From IMG/VR virus record IMGVR_UViG_3300017989_002792: a stretch of DNA of 13,289 bases, one strand, 5' to 3'. The first letter of the stretch is position 1; each line of letters begins with the position of its first letter. Shown here one piece after another: positions 3,948-11,526 of this stretch. Made by a program: the position numbers and the translations under genes. The notes under the pieces were generated by a model. It was not told where the DNA came from and did not search any database. It saw nothing but the letters and a program-made list of their open reading frames with translations. Origin of the DNA: a virus.

Positions 3948-4070
3948 ATGAAAATAATTGATCTAAAAAAATATAAAAAGAAAGAATCAAAAAAAAGAAA
4001 GGAAAAAAGAGAAGAGATAATAAAAAAAATTATAAAATTGTCAGATCATCTATATCCGAATAAAATCTAG
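3948..4070 (+). CDS. possible small lysine-rich basic protein (40 aa); absent from the ORF track
   Basis: RBS AGGAGA 9 nt before ATG 3948. Translation MKIIDLKKYKKKESKKRKEKREEIIKKIIKLSDHLYPNKI. Stop TAG overlaps the -35 of the MVP promoter. Confidence 0.25.
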   Translation: MKIIDLKKYKKKESKKRKEKREEIIKKIIKLSDHLYPNKI

Positions 4071-4097
4071 ACAATATCATTAATAATAGAATATAAT
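4068..4097 (+). promoter_or_regulatory. sigma70-like promoter TAGACA-N18-TATAAT (part of the recurrent GAATATAATTAA motif)
   Basis: -35 TAGACA at 4068-4073, -10 TATAAT at 4092-4097 inside GAATATAATTAA. About 65 nt upstream of the MVP gene start. Confidence 0.55.
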
Positions 4098-4161
4098 TAA
4101 CTATAGAGATTTTTTACAAAAGATCCTATAAATTTATTATAAAAATACAAAGGAGGTTTTA

Positions 4162-6957
4162 ATGGATAATACACAAGGAAGAGATCTAGTTCTAGGTCCT
4201 TTTGAGTATGCGTATGTCCGTGATGACACAAAAGGAAAAGTTGGTGTCTATGTTGGTCCTCACAAAACAAGTTTAGCTGGCACAGACAAACCTGTAATCT
4301 TCGATGAAAAATTAAATCGATTTGTTCCCTGCACAGTAGATGAAGCAGTCCAACCTTTTATTAGCGTTCCAAAAGGCGCTTATGTAAAACTTAAAAATCC
4401 AGCAAGAGATGGTCAACAACCAGAAAGTGGAAAGATTTCTGAATTTGTAAATCTTTCTCACGGTGAAACAGTCAACATCGCCGGACCATGGTTTCAACCA
4501 TTATGGCCTGGGCAAAGCGCAAGAATTCTTTCTGGTCACTTACTAAGATCAAATCAATATTTGATTTGTAGAGTTTATGACGAAGATGCTGCTAAAACTA
4601 ATTGGGATAAAGCGGTAATCAAAGCTCAAAAATTTGATGAAGAGAATGATGAAATTCAAAATGAAACAGACGAAGACACAAAAGAAACTTTAAAACCAGA
4701 AACGAAGGTAATTCAAGATGAAGGTGGAGTAAAGGCTGCAGATAGTGATTTTGATTATACTACTGGAGAGCTTTTTATTGTAAATGGGACTGACGTTTCT
4801 TTTTACATACCACCAACTGGAGTTGAAGTTCTTACAGATGGATCCAAAAATTATGTAAGAAATGCAGTAACGCTTGAACAACTTGAATATTGTATTCTTC
4901 TTGATGAAAACGGGAACAAACGCTATCTAAAGGGCCCTGCTGTTGTTTTTCCTAAGCCAACAGAAAAGTTTTTGAAACGATTTTTACCTAAGACAGCAAA
5001 CAAAAAGGTTTCTAGAAAGTTTAGAGCTATTGAACTTAATGAAATTAGTGGACTTTATATTAAAGTGATTGCGCCTTACAAGGAAAATGGAGTTGAATAT
5101 AAAAAGGGAGATGAATTGTTTATTACTGGAAAAGAACAAATGATTTATTACCCCCGCGCGGAACATTCAATCATTAAATATGGAGATCAAGAAATTCATT
5201 ATGCTGTTGCTATTCCAGCAGGAGAAGCACGTTATGTTCTTAATAGAATGACTGGAAATATTCATACAAAAATTGGTCCTGCTATGCTTCTTCCAGATCC
5301 GAGATATGAGGTTATTGTTAAAAGAGTACTTGACGAAAGACAATCCTTTCTTTGGTTTCCAGGAAATAATGAATCGGCAAATTATAATAAGGCGTTGGCG
5401 GGAATCGCAGAATCTGAAGGAACTGATTATGTTACAGAAGGTGCTGTAAGATCTAAATTAAAATCAACAAAGAATAAGAAGTTATTAAAGAGTGTACAAA
5501 TGTACGATTCTATGCTTGCAGAATTTAGCAACACAGGAGAATCTCAATTTGTTGATTTTGAAGATGAAGATGCGTATATTGATGATATGCAGAAAGGATT
5601 CTCTACGGATGCATTAACAAGAAAAACTGCTTTCACGAAGCCAAGAGAAATTGTTATTGATTCTAAATATGAAGGAGCTGTTAAAATTCAACCTTGGACT
5701 GGATATGCTGTACAAGTAATTGATGGTCAAGGAAAAAGAAAAGTAATCGCTGGACCAGCAATTCATTTCTTAGGATATGATGAAACACTTGAAAAAATTG
5801 TTCTCAGTAGAGGCGTTCCAAAGTCGCAAGACAACCTTAAACAAGACGTTTATTTAAGGGTTCTTAATAATTCTATTACAGATAGAATTTCAGCCGAAAC
5901 TAAAGATATGGTTGAAGTTAATGTCAAAGTTATTTACAAAGTTGATTTTACAGGCGACAAAGAAAAGTGGTTTAATGTAGAAAATTTTGTACAATATCTT
6001 TGTGATTCTTGTAGAAGTATTATAAGAAATAAAATAAAGCAAATGAACATTCAAGAATTTCACGACAATCATATAGACGCAATTCGAGACGCAATAATGG
6101 GTACAAAAAAAGTATCTGCTGAGATTACTGATGAAGATGGCAAAAAGAGAAAAACTTCTACTAAACGAGGACGATTCTTTGATGAAAATGGTATGTTTAT
6201 TAAAGACGTTGAAGTTGTGGATAAAGAAGTTCTTGATGCAGAAATAGAAGAATTGCTTGAACAAACGCAATATAAAGTTGCGCAACTTTCTATTGAAGGT
6301 ACTTTAAAAGAAAAAGAAGTTGAGCTTATTAAAGTTCAACATGAAGCAGAAAAGAAACTAGCAAAAATGGATGCTGAATTAAAAGCAGCAAGAGAAGAAT
6401 CTGCTAGATCTAAAATTCAAGAAGAAATGAAAACTCAAGAAGAGGTAAATAAAGCTGAATCTGCATCGATTATGGCCAAAAACGAAAGAGTTATTAAAAT
6501 GACAGAAGGTGATAATCAAATTAAGCTTCTTAAAACTCAAGGAGAAATTGAGGACAAGAAAACTTTTTATGATGCAAAAGTCGATAGACAAAAACAACTT
6601 GATGCAATTACAGAAGCAGAAGTTGAAAGAAGACGTAAAGAAAATCAAGTTGAGCTTGATTATGCTAAGTCTGAACTTGAGAACATTATTGGAAAAATCA
6701 ATGCAGAATCTAAAGCAAAGGTCGAAATTTCTAAGTCTATTCAGCCTCAACTTATTGAAGCACTTAAAGCAGTTGCTGAAGCTGGATTGCTCACAGAAGT
6801 TGCAGAACATCTTGCGCCACTTGCAATCGTTAAGGGTCAAAGTATTGGAAACGTTCTTTATGATATGTTTCAAAATACGCCGCTTAGAGCAACACTTAGA
6901 GGTATGCTTCCAGGTGGAAAAGGCCAAATGCAAGATGATGATGATGATGATGATTAA
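4162..6957 (+). CDS. major vault protein (MVP) homolog, 931 aa, full-length architecture with poly-Asp C-terminal tail
   Basis: RBS AAAGGAGG 6 nt before ATG. The N-terminus LGPFEYAYVRDDTKGKVGVYVGPHKT...GETVNIAGPWFQPLWPGQ parallels the first MVP repeat domains ([26 protein letters not shown]...LAQDPFPLYPGEV). Further repeats follow, e.g. GDELFITGKEQMIYYPRAEH...IPAGEARYVLNRMTGNIHTKIGPAMLLPDP and AVQVIDGQGKRKVIAGPAIHFLGYDETLEKIVLSRGVPK. Next is a shoulder/SPFH-like region (VNVKVIYKVDFTGDKEKWFNVENFVQYLCDSCRSIIRNKI). A roughly 150-aa coiled-coil cap-helix follows. The cap-ring tail is LIEALKAVAEAGLLTEVAEHLAPLAIVKGQSIGNVLYDMFQNT, and the protein ends in DDDDDDD. Confidence 0.85.
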   Translation: MDNTQGRDLVLGPFEYAYVRDDTKGKVGVYVGPHKTSLAGTDKPVIFDEKLNRFVPCTVDEAVQPFISVPKGAYVKLKNPARDGQQPESGKISEFVNLSHGETVNIAGPWFQPLWPGQSARILSGHLLRSNQYLICRVYDEDAAKTNWDKAVIKAQKFDEENDEIQNETDEDTKETLKPETKVIQDEGGVKAADSDFDYTTGELFIVNGTDVSFYIPPTGVEVLTDGSKNYVRNAVTLEQLEYCILLDENGNKRYLKGPAVVFPKPTEKFLKRFLPKTANKKVSRKFRAIELNEISGLYIKVIAPYKENGVEYKKGDELFITGKEQMIYYPRAEHSIIKYGDQEIHYAVAIPAGEARYVLNRMTGNIHTKIGPAMLLPDPRYEVIVKRVLDERQSFLWFPGNNESANYNKALAGIAESEGTDYVTEGAVRSKLKSTKNKKLLKSVQMYDSMLAEFSNTGESQFVDFEDEDAYIDDMQKGFSTDALTRKTAFTKPREIVIDSKYEGAVKIQPWTGYAVQVIDGQGKRKVIAGPAIHFLGYDETLEKIVLSRGVPKSQDNLKQDVYLRVLNNSITDRISAETKDMVEVNVKVIYKVDFTGDKEKWFNVENFVQYLCDSCRSIIRNKIKQMNIQEFHDNHIDAIRDAIMGTKKVSAEITDEDGKKRKTSTKRGRFFDENGMFIKDVEVVDKEVLDAEIEELLEQTQYKVAQLSIEGTLKEKEVELIKVQHEAEKKLAKMDAELKAAREESARSKIQEEMKTQEEVNKAESASIMAKNERVIKMTEGDNQIKLLKTQGEIEDKKTFYDAKVDRQKQLDAITEAEVERRRKENQVELDYAKSELENIIGKINAESKAKVEISKSIQPQLIEALKAVAEAGLLTEVAEHLAPLAIVKGQSIGNVLYDMFQNTPLRATLRGMLPGGKGQMQDDDDDDD
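6934..6954 (+). repeat. (GAT)7 trinucleotide microsatellite encoding the C-terminal Asp7 of the MVP homolog
   Basis: Direct read: gatgatgatgatgatgatgat followed by the TAA stop. Confidence 0.95.
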
Positions 6958-6978
6958 AAATAATTAAAATCTAAAAAT

Positions 6979-11053: not shown

Positions 11054-11062
11054 GAGAAAACA

Positions 11063-11501
11063 ATGGAAAGATTAGAACCAATTAAATTAACTAAAGAAGA
11101 AAAAAAGAAAATGGACAATATTAGGAGCTATAGTTACATTATCAACATTTCTAATTGGTTTTTTCTTATTTTATGAACGTTTCTTTGAAAGAGAAATGCA
11201 CCTAAATAGAATAAGATTACTGGAATGGTTGAAAAATAACAAACTTCCTGATATTAATCGTTATTCCAATCCCACAAGGGAAGTTTTAGATTTTTTAGGA
11301 GTTAGTTGGAACATAAATGAATTTGTAATTCATTTGTGGAACGACGGAGATGTATCGTGGCAATATAATTCAAGTTTTGTTGGTTATCTTTTTGAACCAT
11401 GCATTTTAAATGGATTTAAAGTAAGTCGTAAAGATAGAAAAGTTAATAAAGAAATCATAGAAATTCTTAAAAAGGAAAAAGCAAAATACATAGACAGCTA
11501 A
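11063..11501 (+). CDS. single-pass membrane protein, apparently split by a +1 frameshift in an A7 run (ATG 11063 in frame 2, body 11091-11501 in frame 0)
   Basis: RBS AGGAGA 6 nt before ATG 11063 (MERLEPIKLTKEEKK). Frame 0, open from 11091, encodes KKRKWTILGAIVTLSTFLIGFFLFY (a TM helix) with no start codon, continuous with ORF 11196-11501. The frames meet at gaagaaaaaaagaaaa (11096-11110). Confidence 0.4.
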
Positions 11502-11521
11502 AAATATAAAAGGAATATAAT
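11491..11521 (+). promoter_or_regulatory. sigma70-like promoter TAGACA-N19-TATAAT (variant of the recurrent motif)
   Basis: -35 TAGACA 11491-11496. -10 TATAAT 11516-11521 within GAATATAATTTAAT. ATG 11527 lies 6 nt after the -10. Confidence 0.45.
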
Positions 11522-11526
11522 TTAAT

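Follow-up and report, generated by a model that had tools for sequence, protein, structure and literature searches.

The DNA analysed here, IMG/VR virus record IMGVR_UViG_3300017989_002792, is a stretch of 13,289 nt that we call the window. It carries several copies of a short module built on the 12-mer GAATATAATTAA, which contains a -10 hexamer and probably marks a small family of promoters. The window has a G+C content of 30%, all of its genes are on the + strand, and intergenic DNA amounts to 860 bases (6.5%). Its proteins include an MVP-like protein of 931 amino acids (with MVP shoulder and repeat domains), a lipoprotein, a metallophosphoesterase, a NodU/Nol-like carbamoyltransferase, two AAA_28 P-loop kinases and one protein of the UDG superfamily; several have PHROG matches, and the content looks like that of a phage. 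Besides the eight tRNA genes that ARAGORN calls, there is a ninth tRNA-like gene at 3531-3608. Exact look-ups with three of the window proteins led to a 13,275-bp ENA contig, 99.99% identical, and to shorter identical pieces in JGI and Logan assemblies; wherever these identical contigs reach an end of the window, they end where it ends. Samples in which the contig is present are ERZ27256770, JGI 3300029267, SRR6963311, SRR14699969 and SRR6963479. The window is essentially a complete 13.3 kb metagenomic contig, a fragment of the genome of a phage that is rich in tRNA genes and probably large.

The 12-mer occurs exactly at 4089-4100, 7016-7027 and 9248-9259; a fourth copy, at 11513-11524, has one mismatch (GAATATAATTTA). 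These four main copies are intergenic, lie on the coding strand directly 5' of open reading frames (ORFs) and contain TATAAT, a six-of-six match to the -10 hexamer, at 4092, 7019, 9251 and 11516. Three of them are preceded by the -35-like hexamer TAGACA, which occurs only five times on the + strand; at 4068, 9227 and 11491 it stands 15-16 nt before the 12-mer, with 18, 18 and 19 nt, respectively, between TAGACA and TATAAT. Two of these hexamers are embedded in the longer word TCTAGACA, which is found only at 4066 and 9225. Conservation reaches past the TATAAT hexamer, and AGAATATAATTAA is identical across three copies. We divide the main copies into two classes, listed here with the genes they precede and, for one, a predicted transcription start site (TSS):

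4066-4100, + strand: predicted class I promoter of the MVP-like gene, with -35 TAGACA at 4068-4073, an 18-nt spacer and -10 TATAAT at 4092-4097 in the 12-mer 4089-4100
7016-7032, + strand: class II copy GAATATAATTAAATATG of the lipoprotein gene, with -10 at 7019-7024, ATG at 7030 and no -35 (the hexamer at that place, 6995-7000, is CCCCTT)
9225-9259, + strand: predicted class I promoter of the carbamoyltransferase gene, with -35 at 9227-9232, an 18-nt spacer, -10 at 9251-9256 and a predicted TSS near 9263
11491-11529, + strand: class II copy GAATATAATTTAATATG of an AAA_28 kinase gene, with -35 TAGACA at 11491-11496 (within the end of the upstream ORF), a 19-nt spacer, -10 at 11516-11521 and ATG at 11527

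When one mismatch is allowed, further copies of the 12-mer appear at 7362, 12072 and 12167, which brings the total to seven, every one of them on the + strand; shuffled sequences hold 1.02 on average, and none of 200 shuffles reaches seven. The core TATAATTAA has six occurrences on the + strand, where 0.71 are expected (P ~1e-4), and a single one on the - strand. Matches to TTGACA-N16-19-TATAAT at 11 or more of the 12 positions number four on the + strand, where 0.76 are expected (P ~0.015), and all four lie directly before genes.

A preliminary description of this DNA, made from the sequence, had reported the three exact copies, the variant at 11513 and a TAGACA 18-19 nt upstream in three cases, two of them within TCTAGACA; the motif search bears out each of these points. 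The inserted T that it placed in the 11513 copy is not there, since the class II copies, aligned on their ATG codons, match at 16 of 17 bases and differ from each other by an A-to-T substitution relative to the 7016 copy. Its low chance estimate is right for this particular 12-mer, whose expected count is 0.026 per strand. Recurrence alone is nevertheless not decisive, because 16% of Markov-2 simulations of the window hold some equally improbable 12-mer in at least three dispersed copies. Its proposal of one promoter class agrees with the perfect -10 hexamers, the -35 hexamers (five of six positions) at 18-19 nt, the oriented intergenic copies and the placement of two copies after terminators; copy 7016, having no -35, does not fit that part of the claim. 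We regard the module as real because independent features join in it: the TAGACA association, the intergenic position of the copies, the strand bias of TATAATTAA, the sites matching at 11 of 12 positions and the identity between the two class I sites over 43 nt described below. The repeated module is a real regulatory feature, of modest interest.

Both class I copies have the layout TCTAGACA-N15-GAATATAATTAA, in which the N15 is A/T-rich and ends in ATTAATA and 18 bp separate the -35 from the -10. Over 43 nt the 4066 site is 81% identical to 9217-9259. From this layout the class I copies are predicted to be near-consensus promoters of the sigma-70 type. Their arrangement is very compact, the TAG within the -35 at 4068 doubling as the stop codon of the upstream ORF 3948-4070. 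For the MVP-like promoter the TSS is predicted at about 4103-4105. The strongest Shine-Dalgarno (SD) sites of the window are in the class I leaders, AAGGAGG being found 5 and 6 nt before the start codon:

4151-4164, + strand: SD AGGAGG (4151-4156) and start codon ATG (4162) of the MVP-like gene; predicted leader of about 58 nt
9274-9289, + strand: SD AAGGAGG (9274-9280) and probable start codon ATT (9287) of the carbamoyltransferase gene; leader of about 24 nt

The carbamoyltransferase gene probably starts at this non-canonical ATT and not at ATG 9332, the start chosen by gene callers. Seven homologues begin M-x-LL-x-TLGHN-SAIG, which aligns exactly with I-H-LLITLGHNSSAIG of the window, and it is because their Met1 falls on the ATT codon at 9287 that we consider this codon the probable start. 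The start at 9332 drops 15 conserved residues.

Two of the four main copies have a hairpin immediately on their 5' side, and these two places (7016 and 9248) are therefore composite terminator-promoter junctions:

6979-7010, + strand: intrinsic terminator after the MVP-like gene, a 9-bp G+C-rich hairpin (6979-6999) followed by a T tract; -16.2 kcal/mol
9206-9240, + strand: terminator hairpin with arms AATGTCTAGA and TCTAGACATT, followed by a T tract; -16.2 kcal/mol, z-score -6.8

The hairpin at 6979-6999 abuts copy 7016. At 9206-9237 the overlap is closer still: the 3' arm is the TCTAGACA -35 of copy 9248, and the 5' arm includes the TAG (9215-9217) that stops ORF 8972-9217. We also considered this inverted repeat as a repressor operator and rejected the idea, the U tract and the fold energy making a terminator the simpler explanation. 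No hairpin is found at copies 4089 and 11513 (fold energies -3.3 and -0.6 kcal/mol), and no terminator is seen between the gene at 11063-11501 and the kinase gene. Flanked by its promoter (4068-4097) and its terminator (6979-7010), the MVP-like gene is predicted to be a self-contained promoter-gene-terminator unit.

The class II copies (7016-7032 and 11513-11529) have the form GAATATAATTWAATATG, which can also be written GAATATAATT(A/T)AATATG; 16 of their 17 bases are common to both, and the ATG is at the end. The relation to class I is visible around copy 7016, where the stretch 7001-7028 has 82% identity with 9233-9260. Counting from the end of TATAAT, the A of the start codon comes sixth both at 7030 and at 11527, as the preliminary description had it, so that the first T of the hexamer is at -11; only these two of the 24 starts in the window have a TATAAT at that position. 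A TANNNT some 10-12 nt ahead of the start codon is a computational signature of leaderless bacterial genes (PMC3160421), and in Deinococcus a TANNNT near the start was shown experimentally to be a true -10 (PMC12340547). The starts at 7030 and 11527 carry this signature, and the earlier suggestion that their transcripts could be leaderless is plausible in its light and in that of the analogue described next.

The analogue is found in L019, a phage-like 30% G+C contig that encodes the closest MVP homologue (47%). Past its MVP gene this contig has a terminator and next TTAACA-N17-TGgTATAAT-N6-ATG, without an SD. The window and L019 have only MVP in common, and we therefore treat the resemblance as analogy, not homology. 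The leaderless reading of the two genes is thus supported by the TATAAT at -11, the off-distance SD, the terminator 5' of 7016 and the L019 analogue. That terminator also leaves no other obvious source of transcript for the lipoprotein block. Within a promoter-family reading of the module, we put it at roughly even odds that the class II copies truly yield leaderless mRNAs. The idea that read-through transcripts would use the SD embedded in the motif fares less well: the SD-like cores (AAGGAG at 7011-7016 and AAAGGA at the 11513 copy) are 13 and 12 nt from the ATG, a spacing outside the norm of the window, where it is 5-10 nt in 17 of 24 genes, and such use is accordingly doubtful. The ATTAA extension, for which two roles had been offered, belongs to the discriminator region, being downstream of the -10; to call it UP-like is a misnomer.

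Three further sites resemble parts of the module:

8173-8205, + strand: promoter-like TTTACA-N18-TGgTATAATTAA (TGgTATAAT, then TAA), preceding the metallophosphoesterase gene at 8238
7341-7375, + strand: near-copy TTGTAA-N18-TATAAT in GGATATAATTAAAT, inside the 3' part of the lipoprotein gene; one mismatch to the 12-mer, 10/12 match to the two hexamers
12166-12181, + strand: 15/16 copy (AGAATATAATCAACTA) of 4088-4103, 30 nt inside the ORF of the UDG-superfamily protein, with no -35 at a usable distance

The site at 8173 has TATAATTAA in common with the motif family, without the GAA. The near-copy at 7341-7375 might serve the gene at 7488 as an internal promoter. AGAATATAATCAACTA covers the class I promoter core and the CTA downstream of it; the copy at 12166-12181 may be the remnant of a formerly intergenic promoter. 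We rejected the 12-mer at 12167 as a fifth promoter: a TAGGACA is present only 9 nt from the -10, and the AAGGAG downstream has no start codon after it at a usable distance.

A megablast search of the window against 50,697 phage records gave no match, and the best relatives reach protein identities of 47% (MVP) and 48% (carbamoyltransferase), so there are no close relatives. At 12 loci the regions upstream of MVP homologues carry their own, different promoters, and different promoters are likewise found upstream of carbamoyltransferase homologues. Besides MVP itself, the MVP-bearing loci have at most one weak protein match to the window. The contig L146, found through the carbamoyltransferase, also carries UDG-like and AAA_28 genes.

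In IMG/VR, TCTAGACA-N15-19-12mer occurs in only one unrelated contig, of 589 kb; in metagenomes, TAGACA-N14-17-12mer occurs in at least 119 unrelated contigs and, among the matches listed, none has DNA or proteins of the window. Single hits in IMG/VR number 62 for the class II 17-mer and 41 for the class I 17-mer. The class II 17-mer opens a long ORF in 21% of its hits, compared with 16% in a control of matched A/T-rich stop-N6-ATG contexts (p = 0.33); its hits being no more linked to gene starts than those of the control, there is no evidence of a widespread module. Rfam finds only tRNAs in the window and no known RNA element over the motif.

L019 has a recurrent promoter module of its own, TTAACA-N15-17-(TGG)TATAAT, in the regions 1-60, 1223-1302 and 7115-7200. 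Two copies have the word TTAACATTCC and end in TTGGTTATAAT, and one more is the TATAAT-N6-ATG past the MVP terminator. The MVP-like gene of the window (4162-6957) has an MVP_shoulder domain at E = 1.9e-23 and encodes a poly-Asp tail at the end of the protein. The protein has 5,328 homologues at E <= 1e-20; many among the best 120 come from bacterial metagenome-assembled genomes, at 42-47% identity. Against the huge uncultured phages LR756500, LR756501 and LR756503 (462-735 kb) its identity is 38%, and MVP homologues are carried by phage contigs of 190-735 kb.

We consider it fairly probable (about 0.6) that a small family of promoters of the sigma-70 type, with GAATATAATT(A/T)A as their extended -10 region, divides the fragment into transcription units. 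From the observed motif positions, -35 association, hairpins and distances to start codons we infer promoter activity, TSSs, use of a host sigma factor and leaderless translation, in the following way. Host RNA polymerase (RNAP) holoenzyme with sigma-70/sigma-A would read the units from these promoters. At class I copies transcription would start about 7 nt past the -10 (near 4104 and 9263; sigma-70-type promoters initiate at 6-8 nt), which would give 58- and 24-nt leaders and SD-dependent mRNAs for the MVP-like protein and the carbamoyltransferase. At class II copies, where 5 nt separate the -10 block from the ATG, transcription is predicted to begin with the A of that codon, and the lipoprotein and kinase mRNAs would hence be leaderless. 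At the junctions 7016 and 9248 one unit would end and the next begin.

Several points weigh against this account. Copy 7016 has neither a -35 nor a TGn and should be weak if it is a plain sigma-70 promoter. The spacers are 18-19 bp long, the optimum being 17 and the usual range 17 +/- 1 bp. Known sigma-70 contacts leave the conserved GAA before and TAA after the -10 unexplained, and no relative is near enough for footprinting. The kinase, UDG-like and carbamoyltransferase genes suggest to us a modified DNA, which might alter recognition. To these we add the simulations mentioned above, in which equally improbable 12-mers recur in 16% of cases. They would fit the view that the repeats are chance likenesses of AT-rich DNA with no common function, as would the generic sigma-70-like matches, of which the window has 77 and shuffled sequences 74. 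Chance would, however, have to bring together the TAGACA association, the intergenic position of four out of four copies, the six-to-one strand distribution of TATAATTAA, four sites at 11/12 or better where 0.76 are expected and 81% identity over 43 nt between the class I sites, and we hold this to be very improbable indeed.

The missing -35 at copy 7016 speaks for two other explanations. According to the main rival, the AT-rich block of 12-14 nt would be the whole promoter, read by a phage-encoded sigma factor or RNAP, and TAGACA would be dispensable. A review describes the early promoters of jumbo-phage virion RNAPs as highly conserved, phage-specific AT-rich motifs of about 10 nt centred near -10 (PMC7598289), and in favour of such a block are the conserved GAA and TAA on either side of the hexamer and the identity of AGAATATAATTAA in three copies. 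A large phage is suggested by the MVP homologues in phage contigs of 190-735 kb and by the nine tRNA-like genes, a large-phage trait, and in L145, a distant relative, one protein gives a weak hit to Sigma70_r2. Yet three of the four copies have a TAGACA at 18-19 nt, an association far beyond chance and typical of two-element recognition by sigma-70; the promoter-like site at 8173 has only TATAATTAA in common and nonetheless has its own -35 and TGn; and no RNAP or sigma gene is among the proteins of the window, which is only a fragment. We find recognition by phage machinery distinctly unlikely. An elaborated form of it, in which the 12-14 nt block is a promoter for phage-specified machinery, placed 5 nt before start codons as a two-mode switch (leaderless or leadered by read-through) in a large, tRNA-rich and possibly DNA-modifying phage, strikes us as quite improbable.

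Alternatively, only the class I copies would be promoters, and the class II copies would be translation-initiation regions, composed of an SD-like core, an A/T-rich unstructured spacer and the ATG. Read-through or polycistronic transcripts would be used, and the likeness to promoters would come from AT-rich composition or an old duplication. Copy 7016 would then need no -35; each class II copy opens with the G of its SD-like core (AAGGAG or AAAGGA), the kinase gene has no terminator between it and the gene at 11063-11501, and the 17-mer is present where many unrelated phage genes start, as often as is typical of any A/T-rich stop-N6-ATG context. What makes us rate this explanation as rather unlikely is that the SD spacing would be 12-13 nt where 17 of 24 genes have 5-10 nt, that little read-through is expected past the -16.2 kcal/mol terminator directly before 7016, and that copy 11513 has a TAGACA at 19 nt. 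Moreover, the -10-to-ATG distance is the same in both class II copies, and a third exact 12-mer (0.026 expected) is unlikely to arise from composition alone.

If the sigma-70-type promoter family is confirmed, the module would be a transcription-unit map of an uncultured phage, its units being the MVP-like cassette, a membrane/lipoprotein block, a phosphoesterase unit and a probable DNA-modification unit. It would also provide a natural promoter of compact size for use in a low-G+C host, and two candidate leaderless genes in a phage otherwise reliant on strong SD sites. No general view is changed by this, since phages are already known to have repeated host-type promoters, junctions of terminator and promoter and the occasional leaderless gene.

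Some other features of the window were noted along the way. The tRNA-like gene at 3531-3608 was missed by ARAGORN and by Rfam on the whole window; a local search scores it at 30 bits against RF00005 (gathering score 29). Its D region is very short, its extra arm is long and its anticodon loop is CUACGAA (ACG), and it overlaps the final codons of ORF 3040-3537. The gene at 2075 lacks an SD and starts only 10 nt past the 3' end of tRNA-Phe (1994-2064), so close that processing of the tRNA could leave a nearly leaderless mRNA. The stretch 11063-11501 appears to be one gene split by a frameshift in the A-rich run GAAGAAAAAAAGAAAA, at about 11097-11112: ATG 11063 opens MERLEPIKLTKEEKKK..., and the other frame continues ...KKRKWTILGAIVTLSTFLIGFF... 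to a stop at 11501; the first start codon in that frame is the M at 11196. The frameshift could be an assembly error or programmed slippage.

From 9287 to 13289 the window encodes the carbamoyltransferase, an AAA_28 kinase, the UDG-superfamily protein and the other AAA_28 kinase. The carbamoyltransferase/AAA_28/UDG cluster recurs, with a changed gene order, at 4803-9027 of L146, a 23% G+C contig binned as Patescibacteria, where it adjoins genes for DNA polymerase B, a thymidylate-synthase-like protein, dUTPase and dCMP deaminase. In our reading this suggests a DNA base-hypermodification module.

Among known systems, the predicted promoters are most readily set beside the repeated sigma-70/sigma-A promoters of lytic phages (for example the early promoters of T4, T5 and SPO1). 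They are alike in a -35/-10 architecture near the host consensus, in near-verbatim repetition before several genes and in conservation that extends past the hexamers. They differ in that the -35 is TAGACA and not TTGACA, the spacer is 18-19 bp and the GAA and TAA flanks are specific to this element. The early promoters read by the virion RNAP of jumbo phages such as phiKZ and AR9 (PMC7598289) likewise have an AT-rich conserved block of about 10-12 nt near -10 before several operons. Those promoters have no -35, however, whereas TAGACA is present at 18-19 nt in three of our four copies. Phages of that kind encode beta/beta'-like RNAP subunits, and the window has no RNAP-like gene.

The composite junctions recall the promoter-early stem-loop cassettes (PeSLs) of T4-like phages, in which a strong sigma-70-like promoter and a terminator stem-loop are combined and often overlap (PMC2839356, PMC4122927). 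The hairpin at 9206-9237 similarly contains a -35, that at 6979-6999 abuts copy 7016, and both PeSLs and the present elements flank accessory genes. Unlike in PeSLs, the stem-loop is found at only two of four copies and the common sequence is 28-43 nt in length, compared with about 100 bp; PeSLs, moreover, end in an SD and a start codon, whereas class II has its -10 adjacent to the ATG. PeSLs also act as recombination points, with mini-circle formation and with indels of the flanked ORFans among closely related genomes. The window gives no evidence that the phage is T4-like. We do not claim membership of the PeSL group, because of the two hairpins among four copies, the 28-43 nt of shared sequence and the need for close relatives to judge recombination behaviour. 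The MVP-like gene, bracketed by its predicted promoter and terminator, also resembles phage morons, accessory genes with their own promoter and terminator; many of the nearest named homologues of the MVP-like protein come from bacterial metagenome-assembled genomes, at 42-46% identity. Morons are defined in temperate phages, as genes that the prophage expresses.

The class II copies are closest to the leaderless genes of Actinobacteria and Deinococcus-Thermus (PMC3160421, PMC12340547), in which, as here, the -10 sets the predicted TSS at the A of the ATG and probably no SD lies at a functional distance. Unlike in those genes, there is an SD-like core 12-13 nt from the ATG that overlaps the motif, and leaderlessness would concern two genes in a 30% G+C phage otherwise using strong SDs and would not be a genome-wide mode. 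A phage gene with two modes of expression is cI of lambda, which is leaderless when transcribed from PRM and leadered when transcribed from PRE; the class II genes could, in a similar manner, also be read from upstream transcripts.

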